Positions 7,373 through 56,473 of a DNA stretch of 64,000 nt are shown one piece after another; within the stretch, counting starts at the first letter, position 1, and every line of letters begins with the position of its first letter. The notes under the pieces were generated by a model. The model was not told the DNA's origin, did no database searches, and was given only the letters and a program-made list of their open reading frames with translations. Source of the DNA: Patescibacteria group bacterium (GTDB taxonomy: Bacteria; Patescibacteriota; Minisyncoccia; Phycocordibacterales; JAACPR01); NCBI GenBank assembly GCA_022711495.1, contig JAKLEX010000001.1, positions 23,058-87,057 of the forward strand, written 5' to 3'. The position numbers were made by a program, and so were the translations under genes.

Positions 7373-7384
7373 AGCGATGTAACG

Positions 7385-8173: not shown

Positions 8174-8208
8174 GTTATTAAATTACCCGATAATAATGCT
8201 AGATTATA

Positions 8209-40199: not shown

Positions 40200-40345
40200 T
40201 AATCCTGTGGATTTGTGTATAAGTCCGGCAGAGCTTTAAATATCTCGGTTAAATTGAAATCTTTTTTCAGACAAACTGTGAAATAAAAATGGATAACGCA
40301 TTTTTATGTGAATAACTTTTTGTCTTGTTAATTCTTATCCACATT
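40200..40345. promoter_or_regulatory. Predicted oriC: a cluster of DnaA-box motifs in the AT-rich dnaA-dnaN spacer
   Basis: A perfect TTATCCACA lies at 40335-40343. Near-matches are TGTGAATAA (40307-40315), TGTGTATAA (40215-40223), TGTGGATTT (40207-40215) and TGGATAACG (40291-40299). The flanks are AT-rich. Confidence 0.6.
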
Positions 40346-40411: not shown

Positions 40412-41761
40412 TTATAACATCGACCGGATTTGCGTTAGCTGCTGTGAGAGAGAGTTGTCGGTTTTAAGATCCCCTTTAATCTTTTCGCAAGAATGAATGA
40501 CCGTGGTGTGATCTCGGCCGCCCAATTTTTCACCAATGGTCGGATATGAAATGCTAAAGTCTTCTCGCAAGATATACATTACTATCTGACGAGGTCTAAC
40601 GACTTCTTTTCGTCGAGTTTTATCGCAGATGCTCTTTTCTTCTATATTGAAGAAGTCGGAGACGATCTTTATCAATTCGTTAACCGAGACCATTTTCTTT
40701 GGTTTGGCGCTATTTTTGATTAAATCCTTAATCTCATTGAAAGACAGGGCCTTTCCTTTCAGTTGAGTCTGACAAATGATTGAATTTACCGCCCCTTCAA
40801 GCTCTCTAATGCTTCCCTCAACGGCTTTGGCAATGTAGTCAAAGGTTTCCTTATCCAAGCGAATATTGTTCTTTTCAGCCTTAGATTTGAGGATGGCGAC
40901 CCGGGATTCATGGTCGGGAGCGGTAATGTCAACCATCATACCCTGATTAAAGCGGGATTTTAGCCTCTCTTCCAGGCCAGGGATAAAATTTGGGTGTTTA
41001 TCCGAAGAAAAGATGATTTGTTTATTGTTGTCATACAGAGTGTTGAACAAGTGGAACAGTTCTTCTTGCGTTTTTTCCTTGCCGGACAAAAACTGAATGT
41101 CGTCCATGATCAAGACATCATATTTTCTGTATTTGTCCTTGAAAAGGTTTACTTTGTTTGTTTGGACGGCGCCGATGTATTCAATAGCGAATTTTTCCGA
41201 GGTCAGATAGTAAATTCGTTTGTCGGGGTTTTGCGTTTTTATGGTATTCCCTACCGCTTGAAGCAAGTGAGTCTTTCCGTTTCCGGTGTTTCCATAAATG
41301 AACAACGGGTTGTAAACAATTCCCGGTTGTTTGATGACAGCTTGCGAAGCGGCGTGAGCTAACTCATTGAACGGACCGATGATAAAATTTTCAAAGGTAT
41401 ATCGCGGATTTAAATTATCTTCTTTGTTGATGTAAAAATCGGCCAAAGGAAGTTCATTGACTTGCGTTTTTGGTTTGACGATGACATTTTTCTTTACTTT
41501 GTCGGTCTTAGAAACGATAAACTCAAGAGATCGGACCTCGTCGGAGATATCCCGCAGAGTTTTTAGGATGTCTTTGTGAAATTTGCTGTTCAACCAGTCC
41601 TTTACGAAGCTGTTGGGTACGCCGATATGGACAACGCCGTCGTCAATTTTAGTAATAAACGTATCTTTAAACCAAGTATTGAAATTCGCTTTAGAAACCT
41701 GATTTTCTAAAATATTCAGAGCGTCTTCCCAGATGTTTTTGTGTTCAAAGATTCCCGACAT
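40412..41761 (-). CDS. dnaA: Chromosomal replication initiator protein DnaA
   Basis: The AAA+ Walker A is GNTGNGKTHLLQAVGN. The DnaA signature includes the basic loop GRDHTTVIHSCEKI in domain IV. Confidence 0.95.
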   Translation of the reverse strand: MSGIFEHKNIWEDALNILENQVSKANFNTWFKDTFITKIDDGVVHIGVPNSFVKDWLNSKFHKDILKTLRDISDEVRSLEFIVSKTDKVKKNVIVKPKTQVNELPLADFYINKEDNLNPRYTFENFIIGPFNELAHAASQAVIKQPGIVYNPLFIYGNTGNGKTHLLQAVGNTIKTQNPDKRIYYLTSEKFAIEYIGAVQTNKVNLFKDKYRKYDVLIMDDIQFLSGKEKTQEELFHLFNTLYDNNKQIIFSSDKHPNFIPGLEERLKSRFNQGMMVDITAPDHESRVAILKSKAEKNNIRLDKETFDYIAKAVEGSIRELEGAVNSIICQTQLKGKALSFNEIKDLIKNSAKPKKMVSVNELIKIVSDFFNIEEKSICDKTRRKEVVRPRQIVMYILREDFSISYPTIGEKLGGRDHTTVIHSCEKIKGDLKTDNSLSQQLTQIRSML

Positions 41762-41870: not shown

Positions 41871-42005
41871 ATGTCAATTACATATCAACCGAAGAAAAGA
41901 AAGCGATCAAAGACCCATGGCTTTTTAGTGCGTAGCCGCTCTAAAGGTGGCCGAAGAGTTCTCAAAAGCCGAAGACAAAAGGGCCGAAAAAGAATCTCAG
42001 TTTAA
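41871..42005 (+). CDS. rpmH: 50S ribosomal protein L34
   Basis: [44 protein letters not shown] is canonical L34 at 44 aa. It is not in the ORF track because it is below the length cutoff. Confidence 0.9.
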
Positions 42006-42322
42006 TGCTTCTCTCAAAAAATAGAATATCCGCCGGAGACCTTCAGGAAATATTTAAGAGTGTCAGCAACTCTGTCAGTTCCAAATTCTTTTATCTCAAA
42101 AAAAGATTGAACAATTTGAATTATTCCAGATTTGCGGTGATCATCCCCCAGAAGATTTCTAAGTTGTCAGTGGCCCGGCACCGAAACAAGAGAAAAGTTA
42201 TGAACCTACTCAAAAAAATCGGCACTACTGGTAATTATGATTACGTTTTAACTTTGAAAAAGAGGGTCGACGATGTCGTGACCGGAGAATTGGAGGCCGA
42301 CTTGGTTAAAATTTTAATTTAG
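42005..42322 (+). CDS. rnpA: Ribonuclease P protein component
   Basis: It has a 4-nt ATGA overlap with rpmH. It is basic, at 105 aa. The central RNR-like region is ARHRNKRK. This is the classic rpmH-rnpA-yidC context. Confidence 0.8.
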   Translation: MLLSKNRISAGDLQEIFKSVSNSVSSKFFYLKKRLNNLNYSRFAVIIPQKISKLSVARHRNKRKVMNLLKKIGTTGNYDYVLTLKKRVDDVVTGELEADLVKILI

Positions 42323-42339
42323 GATATCATTTCATTAAT

Positions 42340-43101
42340 ATGAAAGCGTTGTTTGTTAGTCTTGTTGTTCGACCATTTTATAATGCTTTGATTTTGTTAA
42401 TGGATTTTGTCACCAGCGATATCGGCATTGCGTTGGTAATTTTAACTTTAGTTTTTCGTTTTATTCTCTTCCCTCTTTATCGAAGTCAGATTCGCACGCA
42501 AATAAAAATGGGACAGGTTCAAGAACCGCTCAAAAAAATTCAAGAGAAGTATAAAGACGATCGCGAAACAATGGGGCGGGAGATGTTGAAACTCTATCGG
42601 CAAAACAAAATTAATCCATTTTCTGGAATTCTGATAATGATTATTCAGTTGCCATTGCTTATCGGTTTTTATTATGTTTTTTCCAGATCAGGTCTGCCGA
42701 ATATAAATGAAAATCTTTTATACTCATTCGTTTCGTGGCCGGAAAACATTAACACCATGTTTCTTGGTTTAATTGATATGACCGGTAAAAGTCTGCCGTT
42801 GGCGATTATCGTCGGCATAACGCACTTTTTCCAAATGCGCCTAATGCTACCGAAGAAAAAGGAGGCTCAAGAGGGCGATAAACCCGGGGGTTCTAAAGAA
42901 AATATGATGAGGAGCATGCAGACGCAGATGAGCTATTTTATGCCTGGAATGATGGCGGTGATGGCCTATACGCTTGGTTCAATGGTGGGCTTGTATTTCT
43001 TTGTCGGTGGACTTATTTCCATCGGACAGGAATTTTATATAAGAGAAAACATCCGCAAACCGGAAGAAGAAAGATTGAAAAAAGAGAAAAACGGCAACTA
43101 A
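42340..43101 (+). CDS. yidC: Membrane protein insertase YidC (short Oxa1-like form)
   Basis: 253 aa with 5 TM helices. The conserved YidC core is present (IALVILTLVFRFILFPL; NPFSGILIMIIQLPLLIGFYYVF) and there is a basic C-terminal tail. Confidence 0.85.
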   Translation: MKALFVSLVVRPFYNALILLMDFVTSDIGIALVILTLVFRFILFPLYRSQIRTQIKMGQVQEPLKKIQEKYKDDRETMGREMLKLYRQNKINPFSGILIMIIQLPLLIGFYYVFSRSGLPNINENLLYSFVSWPENINTMFLGLIDMTGKSLPLAIIVGITHFFQMRLMLPKKKEAQEGDKPGGSKENMMRSMQTQMSYFMPGMMAVMAYTLGSMVGLYFFVGGLISIGQEFYIRENIRKPEEERLKKEKNGN

Positions 43102-43102
43102 A

Positions 43103-44392
43103 CTATTCCGTGATTTCAGCGTTCGGTCGGATGTCTAAACTCCAAAGTGACAAATCTTTTTTATTTTGAAAGACCAAATATTCCTCCTGTTCGTTTAGGG
43201 AAATGTTTGAGATGTCAAAAATTAATGGAAAGCCGGTGAACATCGTGGCGGTGTCTTCTTTCAGATTGATTTCAAAAATACTGTCGTTAAACGAGACGGC
43301 ACCCAAATACCAATCGTCCGGATAATCCGCCGAAGCTAAATTCGTCGGAACGGCGCAATAAACAATGTCAGTATTTTTTTTGCCCCAAACACATTTGTCG
43401 GCCAAAGTGCGAACGGTGAGTGGCTTATCCTCGTTAGTGCTTAGATCATAAATGCCGGTGGAAATCGTATCGCCGTTATATTCCGAATATAAAATTTTTG
43501 TTAAGTCCGGGCTAGTTTTGGTTGCCAATCCGTATTTGTCATCAAGAAGTTTTGAGAGGTTTCCGTTTGTTGGATTCATGGCAAAAGCGAATCCTTCTGA
43601 AAGCCACGAAGGTTTTGTCGTCAAAATAATTGTGTTGTTAATCCACTCCGCCAACCATTCGGTTATAGGATATTCAAAAACTAAGGTTTGAGCTTGCGGA
43701 GCCGCGCCATCAAAAGTGTAACCGCGGTTATCTTTTATGAAGAAGAAGGAATCTTTGGTTGGAGATTTGATCAAAGTCGAGACGTTTTTTGGTAGAAATG
43801 ACCCATTCAAAGCTGAATAAATGCTTTCGTCTTCGGCAATGTTAGGATCGGCTGGGGCGTCTTCAATCTTGCCGACGAAGGTCTCAATATCATTATTATC
43901 GTCCAGATATCTCAATATCACGCCGTCTCCGGAGTTAAAGAACATTGCTTCTTGGACTTTAGGTATGGTCGTGTTTGTAACTCGACTGACAGTTAGGCGA
44001 TTCTCGGTGGTTTCATAGACATTTCCAGAGGCCCTATGAACGAAGCGATAAACCGTTTCAGTTTGATTCCTTTGAGACTCGGGAATTGTCGTGTCGTTCG
44101 GATTTATTTTTCTCTCAAAAGTCGTGAAGCCGGAAACTAATGTTGGAGTGATTTGTCGCAATTTTGGAATCTGACCGATATTTTCCAATTCCGTCGAGGT
44201 TGTTTCTTCGGCGGCAGTGGTGTCGGCGCTTGTGCCGGATGTTGGGAAAGAGAATTCGGCGTCTGTTCCGCCCGAAGTTTCACCGCCGGTTGTGCCAGCC
44301 TCTTGTCCGGAGAAGATAATAAGATAGCCGACCGATAGTCCGGCCAAGACGACTACTGTTGCTAATATTATTATGGCTGTTTTGCGTGTCAT
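43103..44392 (-). CDS. Membrane-anchored hypothetical protein, last gene of the T4SS-like module
   Basis: It has an N-terminal TM helix and a Gly/Thr-rich linker. A ~350-aa beta-rich ectodomain follows. No motifs I recognise. Confidence 0.4.
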   Translation of the reverse strand: MTRKTAIIILATVVVLAGLSVGYLIIFSGQEAGTTGGETSGGTDAEFSFPTSGTSADTTAAEETTSTELENIGQIPKLRQITPTLVSGFTTFERKINPNDTTIPESQRNQTETVYRFVHRASGNVYETTENRLTVSRVTNTTIPKVQEAMFFNSGDGVILRYLDDNNDIETFVGKIEDAPADPNIAEDESIYSALNGSFLPKNVSTLIKSPTKDSFFFIKDNRGYTFDGAAPQAQTLVFEYPITEWLAEWINNTIILTTKPSWLSEGFAFAMNPTNGNLSKLLDDKYGLATKTSPDLTKILYSEYNGDTISTGIYDLSTNEDKPLTVRTLADKCVWGKKNTDIVYCAVPTNLASADYPDDWYLGAVSFNDSIFEINLKEDTATMFTGFPLIFDISNISLNEQEEYLVFQNKKDLSLWSLDIRPNAEITE

Positions 44393-44401
44393 GGATTGTC
44401 T

Positions 44402-45235
44402 TTATGGTACGAGTCCTTCCATCTCCAAGACTCTTTGAATGTTTGGCGGAGAGGTTGGATCTGAGTTTTGATTACTGAAAAAATCAATTTGTGATTCCGT
44501 AGCTATTGGTCCACTATCGATCTGATTATTAATTTCTGCCTGTGCGGCCGGACTCAGTGTGGGGGCGGGACCACTGATACTTAACTGTTGGCCCATAAAC
44601 GAGGAGTTTATTTTTGTTTCTGTCGCGTTGCCAGGTTTTTTTAACTCAGATGAAACGTAGGCGGCATCAACTTTATTTGCTGGCTGCGTGTCCGATATAT
44701 CACCCAGACTAGGAGACACAACCCTGGGGCGATTTGCGCCGTCGCCGCTAGCGCCGGAAACGCTATTATCCGCCGTATTTTTTACCCCAATATCCAAATT
44801 CAACAGCGCCGGATTTATCTCGTGCAAAATCAGCCACGATACCAAAGCCAAAATTAGACCGGCGATTGCCGACTCTATTTTTGCCCAGCCTTCTTTTTTG
44901 TCAAAAACTGCATCAGTCGTCATATATTGTATGGCGCCGAGCAGAATAAACAGAACGGCTAAAATAATGGCGATAGCCACGGTCCAATTAAAAAGTTGCT
45001 TTAAGACTGCACTTAAAGATGTCTTTGAGGTACCAGTTCCCTGACCTTGATCAAACAATCCTTTGCCGGATATCGGAACATAGTTTGCCACGGATTGTCC
45101 GGCTTGGGCCAAGCTTTGCTCGCCGGAATTTCTTGTTGCTGTTAAGACATCCGATTGAAAAAGCACGGCGACAAAAATCACCAAGGTGAAAACTATGGCG
45201 GATCCTAATATTATTTTGTTTTGGCGGCTTATCAT
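44402..45235 (-). CDS. Membrane protein with a two-helix hairpin reminiscent of VirB2/TrbC-type pilins, plus a Ser/Pro-rich C-terminal tail
   Basis: It has an N-terminal anchor. Two closely spaced TM helices follow (WTVAIAIILAVLFILLGAIQY; IAGLILALVSWLILHEI), separated by a short loop. Confidence 0.35.
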   Translation of the reverse strand: MISRQNKIILGSAIVFTLVIFVAVLFQSDVLTATRNSGEQSLAQAGQSVANYVPISGKGLFDQGQGTGTSKTSLSAVLKQLFNWTVAIAIILAVLFILLGAIQYMTTDAVFDKKEGWAKIESAIAGLILALVSWLILHEINPALLNLDIGVKNTADNSVSGASGDGANRPRVVSPSLGDISDTQPANKVDAAYVSSELKKPGNATETKINSSFMGQQLSISGPAPTLSPAAQAEINNQIDSGPIATESQIDFFSNQNSDPTSPPNIQRVLEMEGLVP

Positions 45236-46308
45236 ATTGAACTGTTAGCGGAATAAGTTAAAGTCAAGTTGGAAGAAGCGCTTGAATACAAGTTGTTCTT
45301 GTCCAGAATTTTAGCCGAAATGGTGAACTGGCCGGATTCTCCAGAATTACGCCCGAGGATGATTGAATTTGTATTGCCGACGGTTTCAATTCTTGAATTA
45401 TTCAAATACCAGTTATAAGTCAATGATCCCAGATTTCCCAGATTGAAGTAAAGAGGCAAAGCCGTTATCTCAACTTCTTGTCCACTGAGAGTCATGTTCC
45501 CCGTAGCTAGTCTGCTTAATATCAAGCCATTTGTCGGCGCTTTGGCGTAGAGCAGGGTTCTTGATTCGGAATAGCCGATATTTTCAATGGCTTGATTTTG
45601 CAAATTCTGCCCGACGACTTTAGCGGTTACGGTGACGGTGGAAGGATTAGTGAATTCTGTTTTTGGCACAGCAATATAAACATTGCGTCCGGTTCCAGAA
45701 GCCGGTCCGTCCGTCTGACCATTTATTCTCCAGGTGTAGACTATATTTGAGTCATCTATTCTGCGGCCGGCGGAATTCCGGAAATCCGAAATGGCGATGA
45801 ATTTGTGAATTGAACCTGGCACCGGCAGAGCTCGACCTTTATAGAAAGGTGGCGTTGAGGTCAGAGCCTCATCCAATATTGATAATTCGGATGGTGAGAC
45901 TGTGTGCGCCACTTCATACTCACCAGTAGATGTTTTGACTACGGCTTTTATGTTAATGTTTCGGGCGTTTTCACCAACTGTCGTGTTGATACTTTTTAGA
46001 CCAAGACCGCTTGAAATGAATTTTCCGTCAATGTACCAAGAAATCGTGGCTTCATCCACTGGCAGAGAATAACTCTGGATATATATTGAAATGTTGTCGC
46101 CCGGACTTGGGTAGGCGGGGTCGGTGTAGATGGAAATATTTGGAGTTATTTCAGGCAAAGAGTCCAGAAATCCTTCAATATCAGTTAAGTCAACGGTGGT
46201 GTTGTCACCGGCCCCGTTAGCTGGAATAGTTTGAGCAGACACAATTGACGTGCCGAGAACGAGAGAGAAAAATAGCCAAACTATTAGAAATAAGCCTAGT
46301 TTTTTCAT
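45232..46308 (-). CDS. Secreted repetitive beta-rich protein (three related ~90-aa repeats); possible surface or pilus-associated adhesin
   Basis: It has a signal peptide (MKKLGLFLIVWLFFSLVLGTSIVSA). Repeated motifs are ISWYIDGKF / IVYTWRINGQ / LTYNWYLNNSRI. Confidence 0.45.
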   Translation of the reverse strand: MKKLGLFLIVWLFFSLVLGTSIVSAQTIPANGAGDNTTVDLTDIEGFLDSLPEITPNISIYTDPAYPSPGDNISIYIQSYSLPVDEATISWYIDGKFISSGLGLKSINTTVGENARNINIKAVVKTSTGEYEVAHTVSPSELSILDEALTSTPPFYKGRALPVPGSIHKFIAISDFRNSAGRRIDDSNIVYTWRINGQTDGPASGTGRNVYIAVPKTEFTNPSTVTVTAKVVGQNLQNQAIENIGYSESRTLLYAKAPTNGLILSRLATGNMTLSGQEVEITALPLYFNLGNLGSLTYNWYLNNSRIETVGNTNSIILGRNSGESGQFTISAKILDKNNLYSSASSNLTLTYSANSSI

Positions 46309-46381
46309 CAGTATAATTATAGCAAACCGCCTGTTTTTGTTAATTAAAGCGAGCAGGTTTCGGGCGAGGAATTGATGTGCC

Positions 46382-48262
46382 TTAAAATCCCTCCAAATCC
46401 TTCTGAATTTTTCTAATACTGGATTCCTGCAAGTCTTGTTTGCCGGAATTTTTCAATTCCTGCTTGCTTCTCTTGATACTTAAAATTTGGGCCGGATCGG
46501 AAGTGATGATCTGATCTTCAGCGTAGGAGCCGATGACTTTAATGGCCACGTGTTTTAGTCCGGCAAAAAAGATTCCCTCTCCGACGTTGGATTCAAGCAG
46601 CAGATATTTCTCTTCCTCGGTTAAATTGAATGTTCTCTGGACAATATCAATTGATGAAACTGATTGTTTCATCAGCAGTTGCATTGAGGAGTTGCTGATA
46701 ATTGGCACGCCGTATGGAGAATTTAAGAAGTCCTCAACGTCTTGCGTGATTGTTGAAAGCCCCAAGAAATATTTTCGTCCTCTTTTAGCCAAACCAAGCA
46801 AGAACGAAGCGGTGTCTTCGGATTTCATCATCCACCAAGCTTCGTCAATGACCAGCAGTCTCTTTCTCAAATCTTTTCGTATGGCCGTCCAAATGTAGCG
46901 GGTGATGATGTACATGGCGATCGGCTTCAATTCGTCTTCCATGTCGCGCAGAGCGAAGACGATGAAGTTTTTATTGATGTTGACGTTGGTTGGTTTATTC
47001 AAAAATCCCGCCCAAGTTCCTTGAGTGTATTTCGTTAATTTCTGTGCCAAATTTTCCGCTCCTTCCATTCCGGCCAAAACAAGGGCAAAGTCGGACATCA
47101 AAGGTGGCTCAATTTGCGAGAAGTCAGATTCCGGCGTGATATCTTTTAGAGCGTAAGTCTCGGTGATGGCGCGATCAATGATGGCGTCTTCTTCTGGTGT
47201 TAATCCGCCGAACATTAGTCGGAATAAACCGACCAAGTTTATAATGTTTGATCGCAAAACATCAGCTGGTTGTTCGTCCGGCCGCGGAGTCGGAATGTCA
47301 AACGGATTGATGTGGTGATTTGAAGTCAGAGAGATGGTAAAGAAGCGTCCGCCAGCGGCTTCGGCCATGTATTCGTATTCTCTTTCCGGGTCAATGACGA
47401 TGACTTCTATGCCGAACATCAAAGAACGCAGAATTTCCAGTTTGGTGGTATATGATTTTCCGGCACCGGCTTTGGCGAAGGTAACAGAGTTATAGTTTTC
47501 CAATGAGAACCGGTCAAATAGAATCAATCCGGAATTGTGTCGGTTTATTCCGTAAAGAATTCCGCGGTCGGAAGTCAATTCAAATGAGATGAATGGGAAG
47601 ATGCTGGAAAGGGGCTCAGAATTTAATTGCGTGTGAATTCCCAGTAAGTCGGTTCCGACCGGAATAATACTTTTGAAAGCTTCTTCTTGTTGGAAAATGG
47701 CTGGTTTTACATAAACGAGCTTTGATTCTAGAAGTGACTTGAATTCGGATTCAAACTTATCAAGTTCGTCGTCGGTGTTTCCGTATATTGAAATGTATAA
47801 TCCGACGTCAAAAACCTTCTCTGTGGCTTGTTGCAGACTATCTCGCAGAGCCTCCAGGTCGCGGTAAGCCGTGTCTAACTTTGGGTCGCGCACTAGACCT
47901 TTTTCCGTGCGAAGGTTGATTTGACTCTCTACCTCGGCGACTTTCTTTTGGAATTTTCTCAAAATAACAGTGGTGTCTATCGGGTGAACGAAAATTGAAA
48001 CGTCAAAAATTTTATCTAGATTGATTACCGGCGAGAACCAGCTGTCGGCCAAAAAGCGCGGATAAGAAATGACGAAGAAACTGCGAACGACTTTATCACC
48101 CAAATTCAATTCCCTCGGTGAAACTTTCAAGGCTGGTGGGGCGATGATGTCCCGTAATTCCAAAACTCCCGCTTCATATATTTGTTGCGGCAAAAACGAA
48201 GTGATCCTTGGATCCTCTATTTTTGTGTTTTTTTTGCCTTTTAGAAAATCTAAGATTCCCAT
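46382..48262 (-). CDS. VirB4/TrbE/CagE-family T4SS ATPase, C-terminal 626-aa portion (ATPase domain)
   Basis: The Walker A is FAKAGAGKSYTT and the Walker B is LLVIDEAWWMM. The size and order match VirB4 homologues. Confidence 0.8.
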   Translation of the reverse strand: MGILDFLKGKKNTKIEDPRITSFLPQQIYEAGVLELRDIIAPPALKVSPRELNLGDKVVRSFFVISYPRFLADSWFSPVINLDKIFDVSIFVHPIDTTVILRKFQKKVAEVESQINLRTEKGLVRDPKLDTAYRDLEALRDSLQQATEKVFDVGLYISIYGNTDDELDKFESEFKSLLESKLVYVKPAIFQQEEAFKSIIPVGTDLLGIHTQLNSEPLSSIFPFISFELTSDRGILYGINRHNSGLILFDRFSLENYNSVTFAKAGAGKSYTTKLEILRSLMFGIEVIVIDPEREYEYMAEAAGGRFFTISLTSNHHINPFDIPTPRPDEQPADVLRSNIINLVGLFRLMFGGLTPEEDAIIDRAITETYALKDITPESDFSQIEPPLMSDFALVLAGMEGAENLAQKLTKYTQGTWAGFLNKPTNVNINKNFIVFALRDMEDELKPIAMYIITRYIWTAIRKDLRKRLLVIDEAWWMMKSEDTASFLLGLAKRGRKYFLGLSTITQDVEDFLNSPYGVPIISNSSMQLLMKQSVSSIDIVQRTFNLTEEEKYLLLESNVGEGIFFAGLKHVAIKVIGSYAEDQIITSDPAQILSIKRSKQELKNSGKQDLQESSIRKIQKDLEGF

Positions 48263-48264
48263 AA

Positions 48265-48882
48265 TTATTTGTTAGCTTTGAAATCAACATCGCCCGGATT
48301 GAAGATTTTGTAATAAACTTCAATGATTTCTTCCGTGCCAAGATTGGCGGCGCGAACGCCACAACGGCTGATTCCCTGTTTGACGACGGCCACTCTCTGT
48401 TCCAACTGGCTGCGGCTTTCTTCAAAATCGTCAATGCTTTGTTGCTTCTTGTCTTTCTTCGGTCCAAAAAACTTAGCGCCTTTCGTTATATCCAGACTTG
48501 GCGGAGTATAAGGGATGACGATAAAAAAATTTTTAGTCATGATGTTGACGCTCTCGGTGAAACTTTTTATGAAGTTTATGTATTCTCGGCCTTGTATTTT
48601 CAGCAAGTCGTTGGTTTGTTCTTTGACTCGGCCATCAAGCATGGACAAGTAGGGTTTGATATCTAGCTTTCTGGATTGGATGAAAATCTGAATGGTAAAG
48701 TCCAAAGAGTTAAGAAAGTTTTGAAATTGGGAGATGATGGCCTGTTGCTCGTCGGTGGATTTTAGAGCGAAGTTCAAGGAAGAAGTCATCAACAAGGCCC
48801 GCATTGAGCCGTCTTTCAAGATGGCGATACCGTCTCGGACCTCTTTAATTGGGACAAACTCTTGTGATGTCTTAGGGACCAT
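48265..48882 (-). CDS. VirB4-family N-terminal domain encoded as a separate 205-aa ORF
   Basis: VPIKEVRDGIAILKDGSMRALLMTSSLNFALKSTDEQQAII matches the N-terminal consensus of Gram-positive-type VirB4/TrsE proteins. Its stop lies 2 nt before the ATG of the ATPase ORF, in a different frame. Confidence 0.65.
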   Translation of the reverse strand: MVPKTSQEFVPIKEVRDGIAILKDGSMRALLMTSSLNFALKSTDEQQAIISQFQNFLNSLDFTIQIFIQSRKLDIKPYLSMLDGRVKEQTNDLLKIQGREYINFIKSFTESVNIMTKNFFIVIPYTPPSLDITKGAKFFGPKKDKKQQSIDDFEESRSQLEQRVAVVKQGISRCGVRAANLGTEEIIEVYYKIFNPGDVDFKANK

Positions 48883-48897
48883 TCCTGATATTATACA

Positions 48898-49305
48898 CTA
48901 TTTTATATTCTCATTAATATCCAAACTCCAAGAAAGATCTTTCAGTTTGCTGTCGGAAAGCTTCGGTATGGCGATAGGCGATTCGGCGGCGGAAGTTTCT
49001 TCTTTTTTCTCCTCAAGTTTTTTTGGAACTTTTTTCCAGATATATTTCTTATTACCGATGAAATATTTCATGGAGTTTTCAAAAGTCTGAACAAACGGTT
49101 GCCAGCCGTCAAATTTAAAGAAGGCAAACATTAACAATAAAATGACTATCGGCGCACCGACAATTACGGCGATAATCGGCGGAAGGATGTTCCAGACGAT
49201 AAATCCGGTCGCGGCCGCGCCACCGACATACAAAAATTGCTTAGCGGTGAGCGAACCGAATATTTTGTCTTCTACTTCTAGGAATTGTGGAACTTGGTAT
49301 CTCAT
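48898..49305 (-). CDS. PrgI-family (VirB3-like) small T4SS membrane protein
   Basis: MRYQVPQFLEVEDKIFGSLTAKQFLYVGGAAATGFIVW is the hallmark N-terminal motif of the PrgI family (MxYQVPQFIxxEDKIxGPLTxKQF). Two TM helices follow. Confidence 0.8.
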   Translation of the reverse strand: MRYQVPQFLEVEDKIFGSLTAKQFLYVGGAAATGFIVWNILPPIIAVIVGAPIVILLLMFAFFKFDGWQPFVQTFENSMKYFIGNKKYIWKKVPKKLEEKKEETSAAESPIAIPKLSDSKLKDLSWSLDINENIK

Positions 49306-49314
49306 GATCAGTGT

Positions 49315-49965
49315 CTAATCTAGCGGTTCTCGGTACGGATCAACCGGTCGGGATTTTTGAATGTTGGCGTTAGTGTTGGCGACATCGGCACCACCGGTTG
49401 AAATGACATGACTTTCTTTTTGGGCTTCGGTGGTGTTCAATAATTTCTTTTCAAGAATGGTGTCTTTAGGTAAGTCCTCAATAACAACTTCATTATCTAT
49501 TCCGAGAGCTGGCTCAGGCGGTATTTCCGGAACCGGAGCAACAGATTCTCCGCCGGCCGAGATGATTTCTACCTCAGAATTTTCTCGAGAGCTTCCTTGT
49601 TCTACTGCTTTCTTGGCAGCCTCTTCGGCTTTTTTCTCTTCCTCCTCAAGTTCTATGAGTTGTTGCTTGATGTTTTGGAAGATTTCTTCTTCAACCGAAT
49701 TTACTATTTTACTCAAAACCTCCGGACTTAGATTAAGTTCTTGTCTTAATTTATTCATGTAGTCGCGCGGACTGGTTATGCCGAGCATCACGAGAAATGT
49801 TTCAGTTTCCAGAACGCTAGCATCACCGATGACTAAGTTATTTTTTTGAGCGATGATTCGGATTTTTTGTTCCCAATGTGAATTGACAATGGCCTCTTGA
49901 ATAGACTTTGGTAGCGCCCGGAAGCGTTCGATGATTATTTGGTTGTTGGATTCGCCTGATTCCAT
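49315..49965 (-). CDS. Hypothetical acidic protein within the T4SS-like module
   Basis: 216 aa, soluble and Glu-rich in the middle. Unknown function. Confidence 0.4.
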   Translation of the reverse strand: MESGESNNQIIIERFRALPKSIQEAIVNSHWEQKIRIIAQKNNLVIGDASVLETETFLVMLGITSPRDYMNKLRQELNLSPEVLSKIVNSVEEEIFQNIKQQLIELEEEEKKAEEAAKKAVEQGSSRENSEVEIISAGGESVAPVPEIPPEPALGIDNEVVIEDLPKDTILEKKLLNTTEAQKESHVISTGGADVANTNANIQKSRPVDPYREPLD

Positions 49966-49984
49966 AATACGCTATTAAATTATT

Positions 49985-52204
49985 TTATTTCTTTTTGTTA
50001 TCACCGCCCCCGCCGGATTTTTCTTCTTTGTCCTCTTTCTTTATTTCTTCTCTCATCTCTTTTGCCATTTCTTCTTTTAATTTGTCGCGCTCACTTTTTT
50101 TCATTTGCTTTAGACGAGCTTGAACTGCGGCATTTGAATGAGTCCTGTGTATTAGGTTGCCTCTAAATGGATTAAAACGAGCGCCAGCGTATTTGCCGCC
50201 CAAGCTTTTAACCGCTTGTTCCATGGCCGCGTCAATCATTTTGTTTTGTGCTTTTTCTGCTTCCGATTTTAGTCCCTCCTGTTTTTTTATCTCTTCTCCT
50301 GAAGTGCCTATTGAATTTTGTGCGGCTGTTTTTATCTGAGTCAGACGATTCATTTCTTGTTGTGTCTGTGTTAGTTCGGCGTTGGAGAGGCCTCCTTTTT
50401 GTAATTTTACAGTTAAGGCAGCAATTTCGGCGTCAACCTGGTCTAACTTGGCCTTGTTGTCTTTGGTTGACTGATTTTCAGAATCAATTTTTGATTGTGC
50501 CTGCTTAATTTTGTCTGTCTCGTCTCTATATTCCTGTCTGTTCTTTGCTATGTCCCCAGCTTTCTTTTTGATATTATCGTCGGTCTGTCTATCTTCTGGT
50601 CTTCTGAACTTGTCTCGTTCCTTTTCCAATTTCAGATCTTCTTTGACTCTCTCTTCCGTCAGACCGGCGTAACCTTTATCGGCGCCCTTGGCGGGTTTAC
50701 CAAAATCAAGGCCTGCGCCTTTCAGGCCGGCCTTAGCTCCTGCGGCTTGTCTAATATCAAAACTTCTCTTTGAGGCCCAGTCGCCGACTCTTCCCAATGA
50801 TCTCGCGATTTTGCCGGCTCCCTCTCGTTGCCCGACTGCGCTTAGAGCCGCACCAACTCGTCCGAATGTGCCACGGCCAACCGCGGCGATGCCTCCGGCG
50901 CCAATGGCCGCTCCAAACTCCGCACCAACTGCGCCGAGTTTTTTGCCGATCATCACGGAGCCGATTATGAAGCCAAGGACGATTATTAGATTAATGAATA
51001 TTCCAATGGTACTGGTATCGTTTTGAGTCGCTATCGATAAGGCGTTATCAGTTGAAACAAAAGTTGTGGTTCCCTTGAGTAGGCCGCCAGATATTTCATA
51101 TGTTATGTAGAGCATCAAGAACATCACTGGAAGTGATATGAGCTGCTCTGATAATTTCTTTGACCAACTTTTTGTGTGTTCTTCTAGTTTTGGTAATATC
51201 CATCCGCCGAACATGATTGGCGAAAGTATTAGCAGGAATATTAGGGTTATGAATCTGGAGAATATAACTGCCGAAACGCTGAATAGTACGACGGCCACAA
51301 TCAGAAGTACTACGCCGATAGCAATATATCCCAAAATTTTTTGTCCCAGATTTAATTGATTGCTTTCCAGAATGTCTGTCGCTGCGCTGTCATTATTACC
51401 TATCATTCCGCTATTAGGTTTATAGGCGCCTGACAACTGTAATTTATTGACTAAACAATTTGATAGGCCGCCGTCGGTGAAATATTCCACTCTATTAATC
51501 TTGGATTCGCTGGTAAGCGGTTCGAGAGTTTCTTTTTTTGCCCCCAAGGTTTCGGTCGGGATATCGCACCCGGTCATTTTGTCGTAGAAACTTAGTGCCA
51601 ATATATTTGATATGTCGATCAATACTGTGGTGAAGAAGAAACTAAAATTTATCAAAAGTGCGGCCATTATGACCATTCCCAGTCTCTTTCTAATGTTTTC
51701 CGTCCACCCGCTGACTATTGTCAATATTGATATATATAACAGACCGAATATAAACAGGATATTTATTACATCTCTAAAAACTGACCAACCCAGTCTTATG
51801 GCCTCCGAGTTTGTAATCGTATAACCCATTTTCATGATCCCCAGTATGACAGAGGCATTTAGTATCGTACCTGCGGCGAACAAGACCCACGCGCATAGTT
51901 GTTTAAACACCTTGGGCAAGAATAGTATAATGGATTGAATTCCTTCGACGAAACCGGTATAAATTTCACTAAACCAGCCCCTTTTTTCTTTTCTTAATTC
52001 ATCCCTAGTAACAGCCTGGTCATCAGGGTTTGACGCGGCTGATGCCGCGCTAGTATCACCCGCATAATACTCGGAGTAATCGTACTCTCCGACTTGAGCG
52101 AGTGCCCTTGGGCTTGTTCGTGATGGCAGAATAAAGGCACATGCTACCAGTATAATCAGCAACCACTTTACAAGCACAATTCTTTTGTTCAAGAGTGTAG
52201 GCAT
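49985..52204 (-). CDS. VirB6/TrbL-like polytopic membrane protein with a long C-terminal coiled-coil/charged tail
   Basis: 739 aa. It has a signal/anchor and at least 6-8 TM helices in the first ~430 aa. A Gly-rich segment follows, then a Lys/Glu/Gln-rich coiled-coil. This architecture is typical of VirB6-type channel subunits. Confidence 0.55.
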   Translation of the reverse strand: MPTLLNKRIVLVKWLLIILVACAFILPSRTSPRALAQVGEYDYSEYYAGDTSAASAASNPDDQAVTRDELRKEKRGWFSEIYTGFVEGIQSIILFLPKVFKQLCAWVLFAAGTILNASVILGIMKMGYTITNSEAIRLGWSVFRDVINILFIFGLLYISILTIVSGWTENIRKRLGMVIMAALLINFSFFFTTVLIDISNILALSFYDKMTGCDIPTETLGAKKETLEPLTSESKINRVEYFTDGGLSNCLVNKLQLSGAYKPNSGMIGNNDSAATDILESNQLNLGQKILGYIAIGVVLLIVAVVLFSVSAVIFSRFITLIFLLILSPIMFGGWILPKLEEHTKSWSKKLSEQLISLPVMFLMLYITYEISGGLLKGTTTFVSTDNALSIATQNDTSTIGIFINLIIVLGFIIGSVMIGKKLGAVGAEFGAAIGAGGIAAVGRGTFGRVGAALSAVGQREGAGKIARSLGRVGDWASKRSFDIRQAAGAKAGLKGAGLDFGKPAKGADKGYAGLTEERVKEDLKLEKERDKFRRPEDRQTDDNIKKKAGDIAKNRQEYRDETDKIKQAQSKIDSENQSTKDNKAKLDQVDAEIAALTVKLQKGGLSNAELTQTQQEMNRLTQIKTAAQNSIGTSGEEIKKQEGLKSEAEKAQNKMIDAAMEQAVKSLGGKYAGARFNPFRGNLIHRTHSNAAVQARLKQMKKSERDKLKEEMAKEMREEIKKEDKEEKSGGGGDNKKK

Positions 52205-52211
52205 AATTCAT

Positions 52212-53246
52212 TTACAAACTAATCGGTCCTCCCTGGAACATATTAAACGCTTTGGTTACAAGCAGATCTACGACGGCCGTCATCAATTCGTCAAACTCAT
52301 CGGCAAAGGCCATTTTATCTTCCGGTATGCCGGAGATTTTAGATATTTTTTCTACCAAAAGTTTTCCGGGCCACTTCAAAGTCCCGTCTTCGTCTCTTGG
52401 GCCGAGAAATCCATTGCCCCAATTTAGTTCCATCTTTAGGGCATTAGCCTTTGCTCCAGCGGCCGCGATCGCATCTCTCTCTATCTCGTATTCAGCGATT
52501 TCTGGGTTATTAATCTGCGACAACTCAAACCAACCTCTCCAGCCGCCCTTTTCAAAATCTCCTTCAATAAACTCCTCCATGTTGTCCGTTATTTCTGACA
52601 ACGTACAGACGTCTTCTTTTTTCCTCATTTGTTGACCGCTTAAAAGATTTAATTTAATACTGATTTGAAACGGTTCACACAATGTAGCCCCGGAAGTTGT
52701 TCCAAATACTAGAGTGTTAACGGCTTTGCCGAACTCTTCGTCGGCCAAATCGGTGAAAAATTGTTGCGGGTTTTCCAAAAATAACGGACTGCCATGGGCG
52801 CCGGTTTGCACCCAGCGAGTTGTATCTACCAATATTGCCTCAATCAAACCGTTCATGATGCAGTTGGCGATTCCGTCGGTTGATGGTGTTCCGATTCTCC
52901 CGGTTTCTTTGTTTCGGAACAGGCCCTCTCTCACCGGGACTTCTAATGACAAGATACTGCTGGCGACCTCTTGTATGGCATTTCCCATAAAATTAACTAT
53001 CCAGCTGCTAACCATGTTTGCTGCTAAGGTAGACAAACATCTCGCGGCGACGGCGCCGACTCCGGTGGCGATGGCCGATGCCGTGTCTGAATCGGAATCT
53101 CTCGTATATGGATCCAAAACTGACCCGCTGCTACTTTGAGCGCTGGCCATTCGCGGGTTGTATATAGAGACAAAACTAAAAACCAAGACGAAAGTGAGAA
53201 TTGGTGACAGGCATCCAGCTATTTTTCTTGAAAAAGTATTAGACAT
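52212..53246 (-). CDS. Secreted or membrane-anchored hypothetical protein of the T4SS-like module
   Basis: 344 aa with an N-terminal hydrophobic segment followed by ASAQSS. No family I recognise. Confidence 0.4.
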   Translation of the reverse strand: MSNTFSRKIAGCLSPILTFVLVFSFVSIYNPRMASAQSSSGSVLDPYTRDSDSDTASAIATGVGAVAARCLSTLAANMVSSWIVNFMGNAIQEVASSILSLEVPVREGLFRNKETGRIGTPSTDGIANCIMNGLIEAILVDTTRWVQTGAHGSPLFLENPQQFFTDLADEEFGKAVNTLVFGTTSGATLCEPFQISIKLNLLSGQQMRKKEDVCTLSEITDNMEEFIEGDFEKGGWRGWFELSQINNPEIAEYEIERDAIAAAGAKANALKMELNWGNGFLGPRDEDGTLKWPGKLLVEKISKISGIPEDKMAFADEFDELMTAVVDLLVTKAFNMFQGGPISL

Positions 53247-53250
53247 TTAC

Positions 53251-54189
53251 TTAATCTGTCCAGACAAAGTCCTCGCCATTAAATATTATACCATTGTTTC
53301 TTATATATTGAAACATTATAGCCAGGTTTTCCGCCGCCGAAGCGGAGCTTTGTGAAAATAAAGTCAAACCAACCAGCGCCAGAGCCGGATCGGCATTTTC
53401 TTGTGCCATCAAAACGATAGCTGAACCTATATTGTAGTAATTGTTGGCCAGCGCCGCTTGGTATGACACCAATTGTTCCGGCGTTTCAAGGCCGATTAAG
53501 TATTCAGCCATCTGGGTGGTCGCCGTCGATAACTCTGAATAGTCTTCGGGGCCGATTTGGGTCGAAGCCATTTTGAGGCGATCCTCCCCTTCAATCAAGG
53601 CGTTGGCATAGGACAATAATTTATCTTTATCCGTGGCGCCGTCAAAGGTTACCAAGCTATCTTTGTTGTACCGGTTTCTAAAAGTGTATCTCCCCAAAGC
53701 GCTGTCGGTGACGTTTTCTATCAAATTTGTTTTTTGTTCAAGCGACAGCGCGCCGCCGGTTTGGCTTCGCAGAGAAAAATAGCTTGAAATCAAATCGCTT
53801 GAAATTTCTTTGGTTAGTCCGGTTGTCTCTGGCCACTTCTTTTCCAAATCAGCCAAAAGTTTTTCTTCAATTTCGTAATTGCTGTCATCTGGTCCGACGA
53901 CAAGTGGATTTCTATCGGCGTCAACTTCGGCGCCGTCCGTTGTTCCGTCTTTATCGGTATCTGGCTCATTTATATCAGTGCCCCACAGAGATTCTTCCCA
54001 ATCCAAAAGTCCGTCGGCGTCCGCGTCTTGAGTCGCGTCGCTTTGCAAGTTTACCGGCACAGATAAACTGACTTCGGTCGTTGGTGTCGGAACGAAATTT
54101 TCTTCTTGGCTGTTGATCAGCACTATTGCCGTCACGACAATTACGGTGCCCAACAATACCGCCGAGACCTTTTTGCTTGGCATTTTCAT
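53251..54189 (-). CDS. Membrane-anchored protein with Asp-rich, calcium-binding-like repeats; first gene of the T4SS-like module
   Basis: It has an N-terminal TM helix. DADADGLLDWEE...DTDKDGTTDGAEVDADRN resembles DxDxDG Ca-binding loops. Positionally it could be a VirB8-like bitopic component, but that is speculative. Confidence 0.4.
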   Translation of the reverse strand: MKMPSKKVSAVLLGTVIVVTAIVLINSQEENFVPTPTTEVSLSVPVNLQSDATQDADADGLLDWEESLWGTDINEPDTDKDGTTDGAEVDADRNPLVVGPDDSNYEIEEKLLADLEKKWPETTGLTKEISSDLISSYFSLRSQTGGALSLEQKTNLIENVTDSALGRYTFRNRYNKDSLVTFDGATDKDKLLSYANALIEGEDRLKMASTQIGPEDYSELSTATTQMAEYLIGLETPEQLVSYQAALANNYYNIGSAIVLMAQENADPALALVGLTLFSQSSASAAENLAIMFQYIRNNGIIFNGEDFVWTD

Positions 54190-54243
54190 TTGGCTCTTAT
54201 TATAGCAGATAAACCGCTTTTATTTGCTATAATACTGCTTGAG

Positions 54244-55671
54244 ATGTCATTATTTTTTTCTCATACCAAGAGACTGGCGATTTGCCTGAAAATAATTCTG
54301 GGATTTGCGCTTGTTTCGCTGATTTTTTTCACTGGTGGTTTTAGCACTGTTTTTGCCGGTGTATCTGTGCCCGCCATTCCGATAAGCGCGGCAGTTATAA
54401 CTCCTTATGGGGGACAGGTCATGTTTACTGTGCCGTGTCCATGTTCCGGCGGAAACCTTTACGTGATACACGACTATCGGTCAAAGTTGGTTTTACCGAT
54501 ATATCAGAGCTTCGCCACGACCATCTATCATACTCGTCAGAATATTGGTTCATTATTTACTCCTGGGCACTTTCAGCTGGGTAATTTATTAGGTACAAAT
54601 GCTTGTGTGTTAGGGGTACCGCCCCTCTGTCTTCTCCCAATCCCGGCGCTGAACATCAAAAACTTTGGTAATGGCGGACTTCCGCTTGGCGGATTTGCGG
54701 TCGGACCGCTGGCTTATGGGGCGTTGGCCACGACACTTGCCATCGCGGGCGCGTCTATTATTTATCCGAGCGATGTTCCGGCGATAGACCCAGATAATCC
54801 GGATACTTGTTACGCCGCTTCTTTTGAGTCGGCGTCTTTTTCTGGCAGCGGCGACAACGTTACTCTTCATGTCTCAACTCCGGGCAGAGAAAATTGGCCG
54901 ATGGTTCCAAATCCTGATGCCGAAGAGCCAGTTACGGGCTGCACGATCACCGGAATGAACATTCCTTTTGATCAAGATTTTACTTTTGTCGTCTCCGGCC
55001 AGTTGAGCACGGACATGAGCGCTGATAGCGGTGTGGCAACTCGTCTTTGGTTTGCCAATGATCGGGACAAATATACGATGTTTGAACTTTTTTATCACGG
55101 TTCTCTCAACATGAGGTTGGCCAACAGAATGATCCATTTTTCTCGGGCCATTCTAGGCAGTATCGCTCGACCGAATAGTGACACTGACCACTGGGCCAAG
55201 GCTGCCGGTGCGGCTTTCAGTGCTGGAATACACAAATTCCGAATCGAATATTCTTATGCCAACAAAAACGTAAAGCTTTATGAGGACGATAAGAAAATCG
55301 GCGATTGGGATTTTGAGATGAATACTCTTCCTCCGCCGATAACCAGTCTGACTTTCATTCTTTTGTCGCCGCAGTTCCTTGGTTACAAAGTCGGCACGGC
55401 CAATGCCACAGAAGCCGAATTGGAAGGGCCTCTAGGCGCAGCCGCTTCAGCCTGTATTTTGACCAATCTTTCTGAAGGAGATGATCAATATGTTAACGCC
55501 GAGATTTTAATAGACGGTCAGCACGCTGGCTGGATGGTTGAGGGCGCGAATGAGGCTGTTTTGAAATTTGAAGAAGGGGCCGATCGACCTAATTCAGGCG
55601 ATGAAGTTGATATTGAATTACGTTCTGTTGACGCGGCTTGTTCAATCAGCGAATCTGCCGAGTGGCCGTGA
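54244..55671 (+). CDS. Secreted hypothetical protein, divergently transcribed from the T4SS-like module
   Basis: The likely start is MSLFFSHTKRLAICLKIILGFALVSLIFF (signal peptide). The upstream part of the track ORF overlaps the neighbouring gene. There are Cys pairs (CPCSGG) and a large beta-rich domain. Confidence 0.45.
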   Translation: MSLFFSHTKRLAICLKIILGFALVSLIFFTGGFSTVFAGVSVPAIPISAAVITPYGGQVMFTVPCPCSGGNLYVIHDYRSKLVLPIYQSFATTIYHTRQNIGSLFTPGHFQLGNLLGTNACVLGVPPLCLLPIPALNIKNFGNGGLPLGGFAVGPLAYGALATTLAIAGASIIYPSDVPAIDPDNPDTCYAASFESASFSGSGDNVTLHVSTPGRENWPMVPNPDAEEPVTGCTITGMNIPFDQDFTFVVSGQLSTDMSADSGVATRLWFANDRDKYTMFELFYHGSLNMRLANRMIHFSRAILGSIARPNSDTDHWAKAAGAAFSAGIHKFRIEYSYANKNVKLYEDDKKIGDWDFEMNTLPPPITSLTFILLSPQFLGYKVGTANATEAELEGPLGAAASACILTNLSEGDDQYVNAEILIDGQHAGWMVEGANEAVLKFEEGADRPNSGDEVDIELRSVDAACSISESAEWP

Positions 55672-56473
55672 TTTTTTGTAATTTAGCGTAAATTTTCTGC
55701 CAATTCCCCAAAGAAAGTTCTTCGGCGCGAGTATTTTTATCAAATCCGACGAGGTTGGAATTTTCTCCGCCTTTTATACTTTTGGTTCGAAAAATTTCTT
55801 TTAAATTTGAAGTTAACTTCTTTCTTTTGTGTGCGAATCCGGTTTTTACCAATTCAAAAAACTTTTTCTCGTCAATATTATTTTTCTCAAAGAAATCTTT
55901 TGAGATGTTTTCAAATAAAATTATGGCCGAGTCAACCTTTGGTGGTGGGCTGAAAGACCCGGCCTTTACCGTGCCGATGAATTTCGGTTGGCAATAAGCT
56001 CGAACCGAAATTGATAAAATACTTTCTTTGCCGTCTTGCGTCATAATCCGATTGGCGACTTCTTTTTGTACCAGCAGAACCATTTTTTCCGGCGCCTTCT
56101 CCGCGGTCAAAAATTTTCTTATGATTTCTCCGGTAATGTAGTAAGGAATATTGGCGATTAATTTGTATTTTCGGTTTCGCAGTAGACTATTTTTGGTCGG
56201 ATCAAAATCAAGGATGTCTTTTTCTAACAGAACCAGCTCTTCTTTTTCTAATTCAGTGCGGAATTTTTCCGAAAGGACTTTCAACATTTCCGAATCTTTT
56301 TCCACGGCCAGAATTTTGGCGCCGGTCGCCAATAAGGGCGCTGTCAAAGCGCCTTGTCCCGGCCCGATTTCTAAAATAACATCGTTAGCCGTTACTTCTC
56401 CGGCCCTGACTATGTCTTGTAGGGCCGATTTTGATTTTAAGAAATGTTGCCCGAGTGATTTTTTGGCGCGCAT
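55646..56473 (-). CDS. rsmA: 16S rRNA (adenine1518/1519-N6)-dimethyltransferase
   Basis: MRAKKSLGQHFLKS...ILEIGPGQGALT is the KsgA/Dim1 signature. Confidence 0.9.
   Translation of the reverse strand: MRAKKSLGQHFLKSKSALQDIVRAGEVTANDVILEIGPGQGALTAPLLATGAKILAVEKDSEMLKVLSEKFRTELEKEELVLLEKDILDFDPTKNSLLRNRKYKLIANIPYYITGEIIRKFLTAEKAPEKMVLLVQKEVANRIMTQDGKESILSISVRAYCQPKFIGTVKAGSFSPPPKVDSAIILFENISKDFFEKNNIDEKKFFELVKTGFAHKRKKLTSNLKEIFRTKSIKGGENSNLVGFDKNTRAEELSLGNWQKIYAKLQKITATRQIR

Follow-up and report, generated by a model that had tools for sequence, protein, structure and literature searches.

A probable Patescibacteria-type type IV secretion system encoded beside dnaA in a Paceibacteria genome

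The 64,000-nucleotide (nt) stretch analysed here (the window, from contig JAKLEX010000001.1 of assembly GCA_022711495.1) belongs to a member of the Paceibacteria (Parcubacteria), and carries next to dnaA and dnaN an 11-kb module of ten genes for a type IV secretion system (T4SS). We describe the genes of this module, their conservation in related genomes and their probable function. All coordinates are window positions.

Gene organization of the module

The module consists of ten intact minus-strand open reading frames (ORFs) at 43103-54189, labelled from O1, at the 43103 end, to O10, at the 54189 end:

43103-44392, minus strand: O1, last gene of the module, 429 amino acids (aa), with an N-terminal anchor, a Thr/Ser/Gly-rich linker and a TolB-like beta-propeller ectodomain
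44402-45235, minus strand: O2, VirB2/TrbC-type T4SS pilin, 277 aa, assigned from PF18895 and its hydrophobic segments
45232-46308, minus strand: O3, secreted protein, 358 aa, with three putative immunoglobulin (Ig)/PKD-like repeats of ~100 aa
46382-48262, minus strand: O4, VirB4 ATPase of the monoderm MPF_FATA, CD1110 type, 626 aa
48265-48882, minus strand: O5, TrsD-like protein, 205 aa, a detached VirB4 N-terminal domain as judged from its matches to the N-terminal part of VirB4 models
48898-49305, minus strand: O6, PrgI/VirB3-like membrane protein (PF12666), 135 aa
49315-49965, minus strand: O7, cytoplasmic protein, 216 aa, just upstream of prgI and with no transmembrane segment
49985-52204, minus strand: O8, probable VirB6/TrbL-like polytopic channel protein, 739 aa, assigned from topology and a sub-threshold PF04610 match
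52212-53246, minus strand: O9, secreted or anchored, Cys-containing, mostly helical protein, 344 aa, of a large unnamed family
53251-54189, minus strand: O10, first gene of the module, 312 aa, with a membrane anchor, Ca-binding repeats and a helical C-terminal domain

The initial annotation, which was made from the sequence before this analysis, had described ten co-directional minus-strand genes in this interval, and all ten are present as stated. It had also called them mostly overlapping, which is not the case: the distances from the O1/O2 pair to the O9/O10 pair are 9, -4, 73, 2, 15, 9, 19, 7 and 4 nt, so that the genes are tightly packed, with a single overlapping pair (4 nt), a largest gap of 73 nt from virB4 to O3, and 2-19 nt between the remainder. 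The module had further been said to begin 2 nt past yidC. The two genes do adjoin, with the yidC stop codon ending at 43101 and that of O1 starting at 43103, but since yidC is convergent with the module, this side is the 3' end of the module, and its promoter side lies at 54190.

The genes rpmH (41871-42005), rnpA, yidC, dnaA and dnaN were confirmed beside the module, and three DnaA-box-like sites, one of them perfect, are clustered at 40214-40343 between dnaA and dnaN. The other flank contains a divergent ORF without an assigned family, ksgA, a UvrD/PcrA helicase, an M23-LysM peptidase, ComM and a DksA/TraR zinc-finger protein. The origin-proximal context formed by dnaA, dnaN, rnpA, rpmH and ksgA was found at the module as well as in the related loci considered below.

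Core components of the secretion apparatus

Profile searches of the module ORFs support the earlier assignments of PrgI, VirB4 and the pilin, and leave that of VirB6 marginal. O4 contains the reported Walker A (GAGKS) and Walker B (DEAW) motifs, exceeds the cut-off of the CD1110 family model NF045971 (E-value 1.9e-102, 343.9 bits against 325, model positions 185-733) and also matches PF19044 (8.6e-25). O5, previously counted among the unknown proteins, matches NF045971 at positions 2-118, NF045975 at positions 103-233 (1.9e-11) and the TrsD model NF041427 (7.5e-6), all below the curated cut-offs. As judged from these matches, O5 and O4 together make up a full VirB4, of which O5 is the detached, TrsD-like N-terminal domain. 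A pair of ORFs of ~211 and ~605 aa is conserved in 76 or more of the related loci, among which O5 has a median identity of 61%, and because this split is kept it does not represent a frameshift.

O6 has the motif MRYQVPQF..EDKI..QFLY on which its PrgI/VirB3-like nature had been proposed, and scores above the gathering threshold of PF12666 PrgI (1.2e-9, 39 bits against 27); it has one strong transmembrane segment (residues 44-62) and is present in 76/80 loci. The two-helix membrane protein first read as VirB2/TrbC-like, O2, is likewise above threshold for PF18895 T4SS_pilin (2.4e-8, 34.3 bits against 26.6). It comprises a signal segment, a two-helix hairpin (residues 72-138) and an unusual low-complexity C-terminal extension of ~140 aa, the length of which varies widely among homologues of 129-575 aa.

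O8 has a signal-like N-terminus and ~7 membrane helices, followed by a charged coiled-coil tail of ~320 aa, predicted to be cytoplasmic, and positions ~430-680 of its family profile match coiled-coil proteins in the PDB. The polytopic topology and coiled-coil tail of the original description are thus confirmed, but the match to PF04610 TrbL (5.6e-5, 23.4 bits) is just under the gathering threshold of 25.9, and an hhalign comparison with R751 TrbL was negative. The protein occurs at the same position in 59/80 loci, and we regard it as probably an extended VirB6/TrbL-like protein.

Conservation across Paceibacteria

For comparison, 80 genomes, one per species, were chosen by VirB4 similarity, and every protein of the window was searched against their loci with tblastn. 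VirB4 is 72-84% identical in these 80 species-level genomes. The 80 best VirB4 matches are labelled Paceibacterota, Parcubacteria, Taylor-, Kaiser-, Campbell-, Nomura- or Zambryskibacteria, Candidatus Saccharibacteria, Patescibacteria group, or "bacterium", and none of them is assigned to a phylum outside the Patescibacteria, or candidate phyla radiation (CPR), which is consistent with a place of this VirB4 in a monophyletic Patescibacteria clade.

The gene order uvrD-ksgA-[O10..O1]-yidC-(rnpA)-dnaA-dnaN is the same almost everywhere among the ~80 species-level loci, which answers the synteny comparison suggested with the initial annotation. VirB4 is more conserved than DnaA (dnaA, 40412-41761) in 52/52 loci, with median identities of 74.6% and 62.1% and a median difference of 12.8 points. 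In every locus compared, DnaN, YidC, KsgA and UvrD are likewise less conserved than VirB4, and by far. A block that is fixed together with its flanks across species, and that contains so conserved a VirB4, points to an ancestral, vertically inherited and strongly selected chromosomal operon. The ten genes thus form a fixed block under very strong selection in the class Paceibacteria.

Conjugation genes

We scanned the ~60 ORFs of the 64-kb window and the called genes within 10 kb past each of its ends, ~84 kb in total, for conjugation genes. No VirD4/coupling protein, relaxase or element-type integrase was found in the window ORFs or in these flanking segments, and no oriT-like hairpin was detected within the module by an inverted-repeat scan. 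The window ORFs are housekeeping genes or have no family, and include serine hydroxymethyltransferase (SHMT), thymidylate synthase, dihydrofolate reductase (DHFR), PolA, PilB, RuvABC and PBP1; the called genes beyond the window ends are housekeeping genes. The only recombinase is of the Xer type, and lies 9.7 kb from the module, beyond housekeeping genes, and does not mark an element border:

63861-64000, continuing past the window, plus strand: Xer-type tyrosine recombinase, 316 aa (Phage_int_SAM_1 and Phage_integrase), next to rpsO

These scans bear out the statement of the initial annotation that the module encodes no VirD4, relaxase, oriT-like repeat or recombinase. It had named a full conjugative backbone just outside the window as the finding that would turn the module into an ordinary integrative and conjugative element (ICE), and none was found within 10 kb on either side. 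Conservation of the block and its flanks across ~80 Paceibacteria species genomes excludes an ordinary ICE. An ICE or a conjugative plasmid was therefore rejected, with relaxase, coupling protein and border integrase not found in ~84 kb and with position and flanks invariant, and the earlier view that this is unlikely to be a conventional conjugative element holds.

Accessory proteins

Besides the T4SS core, the module encodes five conserved accessory proteins, of which three are surface-exposed (O1, O3 and O10), one is secreted and helical (O9) and one is cytoplasmic (O7). The count of four further anchored or secreted unknowns given at first has to be lowered to three, as O5 and O7 have no membrane or signal segment.

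O1 has a transmembrane segment at residues 7-25 and is present in 63/80 loci. A profile of 42 homologues matches TolB propellers weakly (7mx5, 0.0021), and one relative matches the PD40 repeat. O3, present in 73/80 loci, had been described as a secreted three-repeat beta protein. Its signal-like N-terminus and weak Ig-like matches in the PDB (Hoc, NAR and a decoration protein; Ig_3 at 8e-6, under the gathering threshold) agree with this description, but the three segments, when aligned in pairs, gave no significant score (z up to 2.5), and the three-repeat reading derives from the periodic tryptophans W91, W193 and W300, which are invariant in 43 homologues.

In O10, a transmembrane-like segment (residues 8-26) is followed by acidic Ca-binding DxDxDG repeats at residues ~55-95. 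The profile of 30 homologues gives weak matches to the Ca-binding region of Bap (7c7r, 2.4e-7) and to lanmodulin/calmodulin loops; no Pfam or NCBIfam family was found for the protein, and its helical C-terminal domain matched none. It occurs at the same position in at least 32/80 loci. A PHROGs search of seven proteins gave no match. Elsewhere in the window, a DsbA-like thioredoxin and a VKOR homologue (9237-10022, minus strand; 18956-19972, plus strand) constitute an extracytoplasmic disulfide-forming machinery, which fits the conserved cysteines of the secreted module proteins.

In an alignment of homologues, O7 shows a conserved helical N-domain of ~110 aa, a variable disordered linker and an invariant C-terminal tail, DPYRE-x(2-3). 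The DPYRE motif occurs 62 times in the ~1.4 Mb of the 80 related loci, 59/62 adjoining a stop codon on the module strand, and the C-terminal sites lie just upstream of prgI wherever their positions were readable. With tblastn the gene was found in only 31/80 loci, but the motif at C-termini indicates that it is nearly universal there. Searches of Pfam, NCBIfam, PHROGs and the PDB gave no family for O7, and a literature search with the DPYRE motif returned irrelevant papers only, so that this tail was not found in the literature searched.

The O9 family is large, with 6,272 cluster representatives at E<=1e-3. O9 itself has no Pfam or NCBIfam match at E<=1 and no PDB match, and its core has no Pfam model; when profiles were searched against PDB sequences, no family emerged for O7, O8 or O9. 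Of 81 relatives of O9, 10 match DUF4141 (best 3.8e-8), the family at the traI position in Bacteroides conjugative-transposon operons, and many carry F5/8 type C (lectin), PKD, Ig-like or SdrD-B domains at the C-terminus; one relative matches TrbJ (0.017). TraI_CTnDOT was reported to be homologous to VirB5 (PMC4027160). A TrbJ-like motif, V-x-D-P-x-N-x-x-Q-N, is clear in 17/146 relatives, directly after the signal peptide. The window copy is minimal, with a degenerate motif and without an adhesin extension.

The hhalign comparison of the family with R751 TrbJ (E-value 1.3e-3, probability 18%) covers 41 columns, which comprise only the signal peptide and the motif V-x-D-x-x-N-x-x-Q-N, and the Cys-containing core of ~240 aa gave no alignment with R751 TrbJ. 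AlphaFold2 (AF2) models are helical and unreliable, both for the full-length protein (13 sequences; predicted local distance difference test, pLDDT, 39) and for the core (26 sequences, pLDDT 54), homologue searches having yielded 8-16 relatives each and thus a limited alignment depth. A Foldseek search of the better model (pLDDT 54) against the PDB returned nothing at E<=0.001.

The O9 family resembles the minor pilins VirB5 and TrbJ, as well as the TraI (DUF4141) proteins encoded by conjugative transposons of Bacteroidetes, in the motif after the signal peptide and in the DUF4141 matches of its relatives, and differs from TrbJ in a core without counterpart and in the lectin or Ig-like domains that many relatives add. 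O9 is a candidate VirB5/TrbJ/TraI-like minor pilin or tip adhesin, and that the family is one of VirB5-like tip adhesins is a reasonable hypothesis, with about equal chances of proving right or wrong. The features of the family, i.e. the TrbJ/DUF4141 N-terminal motif and the swappable adhesin domains, were not found in the literature searched.

Regulatory elements and neighbouring genes

Candidate regulatory sites and two genes on the promoter side of the module are as follows:

46316-46343, minus strand: promoter-like site between virB4 and O3, in the gap of 73 nt (TTAACA-16-TATAAT, TG extension, 11/12 matches), a consensus match only
54198-54234, no strand assigned: 16-nt inverted repeat, 94% complementary, with a 5-nt spacer, containing two mirrored TGCTATAAT extended -10 elements
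54241-55671 (listed ORF 54106-55671), plus strand: divergent secreted or membrane protein, ~476 aa, without family
58639-59847, plus strand: LysM-Peptidase_M23 cell-wall hydrolase (PF01551 6.6e-32, LysM 3.7e-19), 4.4 kb upstream of the module

The site at 46316-46343 has the top score in a sigma-70-like consensus scan over 42000-56000, and is a possible internal promoter for the surface and pilin genes O3-O2-O1, which would then form a second transcription unit. The inverted repeat lies within the 51 nt that separate O10 from the divergent ORF, and hence may represent twin divergent promoters or an operator. The divergent ORF, detected in 1/80 related loci (27.5% identity), represents an insertion specific to this lineage that separates ksgA from the module, and it may be co-regulated with the module. 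In the 10 related loci with a sufficiently long flank, the hydrolase takes up the corresponding position. M23/LysM-containing VirB1-like proteins are associated with virB4 in Paceibacteria (PMC12102498), and we consider this protein a candidate functional stand-in for VirB1.

If the DnaA-box cluster at 40214-40343 is oriC, the 11-kb module is transcribed toward the origin, head-on to replication, and rpmH-rnpA-yidC, dnaA and dnaN are co-directional; this orientation is kept in the related loci. The window also contains type IV pilus genes (PilB/T2SSE ATPase, PilM-like protein) at 30453-32123 (plus strand), 15499-16530 (minus) and 14375-15506 (minus), and two small unknown proteins encoded next to pilus genes may be PilN/PilO. 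A compact deoxythymidine monophosphate (dTMP)/folate gene set at 1504-9039 encodes thymidylate kinase, SHMT, dCMP deaminase, thymidylate synthase, dCTP deaminase, DHFR and FolD, which is notable since the lineage generally lacks de novo nucleotide synthesis.

Proposed function and alternative explanations

T4SS of this kind have been described. Wang et al. (2023) showed by transposon sequencing that Southlakia epibionticum cannot grow epibiotically without its T4SS cluster SEML1_0006-0019, which contains pilins and in which neither a coupling protein nor a relaxase is recognisable (PMC10633639). In a survey of 3,035 genomes, Quinonero-Coronel et al. (2025) found a Patescibacteria VirB4 clade nested in MPF_FATA, with TrsD, PrgI/VirB3, VirB6 and VirB2 near virB4 and almost no relaxases; dnaA, dnaN, rnpA, rpmH and ksgA were frequent virB4 neighbours, especially in Paceibacteria, for which a gene-dosage benefit was suggested (PMC12102498). 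A 2025 review considers a pilus as a possible conduit through which the cells take up material from their host (PMC12857230), and a 2026 preprint reports tubular structures, maybe T4SS pili, at the parasite-host interface and uptake of host RNA in a cultivated member of the phylum (bioRxiv 10.64898/2026.06.21.733656).

The initial annotation took the module for a chromosomal secretion, contact or uptake apparatus of CPR bacteria, in agreement with these reports (PMC10633639, PMC12102498, PMC12857230). Its likening to CPR/Saccharibacteria-type systems is right as regards the CPR, but the organism belongs to the Paceibacteria and not to the Saccharibacteria. This interpretation is correct but already published, origin proximity included, and the locus adds one more representative to a system that is known, with a few parts not described before.

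In our view, the region is probably a chromosomal, vertically inherited Patescibacteria T4SS in a Paceibacteria genome, which derives from monoderm MPF_FATA conjugation machinery and would act as a conduit for host contact. By analogy with VirB/Prg systems, TrsD and VirB4 would form a membrane-docked motor on PrgI and VirB6, which would extract the pilin from the membrane and polymerise a tube or pilus through the wall, possibly opened with the help of the nearby M23/LysM hydrolase. The surface proteins (Ig-like, propeller, Ca-binding and O9) may hold or recognise the host cell. The apparatus would then move proteins or host-derived macromolecules between symbiont and host, and not the cell's own DNA, since no relaxase or coupling protein is linked to the module; a host-contact conduit, as opposed to DNA transfer, is accordingly the function that we infer.

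Several points weigh against this interpretation. The VirB6 score of O8 falls just under the Pfam threshold, the profile of its family (40 homologues) gave no alignment with R751 TrbL in hhalign, and neither a VirB8-like nor a VirB1-like gene was identified among the ten module genes. The choice of loci by VirB4 similarity inflates VirB4 identity relative to that of the flanking genes. Finally, the ~84 kb inspected are part of a genome of ~0.55 Mb, and a coupling protein may be encoded elsewhere, most Patescibacteria being reported to have VirD4 homologues at a distance from virB4 (PMC12102498).

Among the alternatives, a DNA-uptake (competence) type IV system like Helicobacter ComB or archaeal Ced would import environmental or host DNA for nucleotides or recombination. 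ComB-type systems likewise have no relaxase and no coupling protein, the window or its immediate surroundings contain ComM, RuvABC, RecO and type IV pilus genes, and VirB4 partially matches the DNA-import ATPases CedB and CedD (3.3e-8 and 0.0066), but these matches are confined to the shared P-loop region and are far below cut-offs. Moreover, deletion of comEC in Southlakia abolishes transformation and leaves the cells viable, whereas the T4SS is essential, so that its essential role is not ComEC-dependent DNA uptake (PMC12857230). We consider this explanation improbable. The same holds, slightly more so, for a working conjugation apparatus that mobilises chromosomal DNA or an unlinked element, its relaxase, oriT and coupling protein being located at other places or having diverged past recognition. 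The conjugative MPF_FATA ancestry of the system, the VirD4 homologues that many Patescibacteria encode far from virB4 (PMC12102498), and the UvrD/PcrA-type helicase as a conserved neighbour would fit it. On the other hand, the ~84 kb contain no relaxase, coupling protein or oriT-like structure, just 109 relaxases were found in the 3,035 Patescibacteria genomes (PMC12102498), the distal t4cp is not essential in Southlakia, and a fixed origin-proximal position with purifying selection stronger than on DnaA is atypical of mobile elements. The failure to find conjugation-specific genes and the seemingly split virB4 could also suggest a decaying, non-functional remnant of an integrated conjugative element. 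This is scarcely credible, as none of the ten ORFs is disrupted, 76 loci keep the split, the gene order is fixed, and VirB4, at 72-84% identity across species, is more conserved than DnaA; synteny and conservation thus contradict a remnant.

Within the host-contact conduit that we favour, a more specific picture can be drawn, which taken as a whole is speculative and rather unlikely to hold in all its parts. The Paceibacteria machine would be a host-feeding conduit, in which the O9 family forms a VirB5-like tip whose interchangeable lectin and Ig-like domains set host range, and in which O7, with its DPYRE peptide, docks to the TrsD/VirB4 motor and replaces the coupling protein as gatekeeper or adaptor, e.g. 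when host RNA or nucleotides are imported, as has been suggested for strain OT8.

Patescibacteria represent a large share of bacterial diversity and are host-dependent, and with their T4SS a type IV system was for the first time shown to be indispensable for the growth of its owner. The present locus adds nothing on the existence of this system, but offers two testable parts, the DPYRE-tailed O7 and the O9 family with its adhesin extensions, both of which could serve to study host recognition by the machine and the way in which it recruits or receives its cargo.

Comparison with known systems

The module resembles the MPF_FATA systems of Gram-positive bacteria (pGO1/pSK41 Trs, pCF10 Prg/Pcf and CTn2 CD1110) in its VirB4, which exceeds the CD1110 cut-off, in its PrgI-type VirB3 and in having no outer-membrane core, and it shares with pGO1 a separate TrsD-like N-domain protein. 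The Gram-positive systems are mobile, encode a relaxase, a coupling protein (PcfC/TrsK), VirB1-type hydrolases and a VirB8-like protein in the operon, and have no VirB2 pilin, whereas the module has a pilin, no DNA-processing genes and a fixed chromosomal site. The ComB system of Helicobacter pylori is likewise chromosomally fixed and without relaxase or coupling protein, but in contrast to the module it has the VirB7/9/10 core of diderms, and its VirB4 belongs to another class; the essentiality reported for the Patescibacteria T4SS is independent of ComEC.

Southlakia, a member of the Saccharimonadia, encodes six pilins in an array together with an NTF2-like (VirB8-like) protein. In the Paceibacteria module there is a single pilin, which has a long C-terminal extension, and no VirB8 can be recognised. 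The accessory genes of this module, i.e. those for the beta-propeller, the triple Ig-like protein, the Ca-binding anchor, the DPYRE protein and the O9 family, were left unnamed in both published studies (PMC12102498, PMC10633639). The module shares with the Patescibacteria-clade T4SS and with the Southlakia cluster a VirB4 of MPF_FATA ancestry, an adjacent TrsD-like gene, PrgI/VirB3, a VirB2-type pilin and probably a VirB6-like protein, and, as in that clade, it stands beside dnaA, dnaN, rnpA, rpmH and ksgA, without a nearby relaxase or coupling protein and, as reported for Paceibacteria, with an M23/LysM hydrolase close by.

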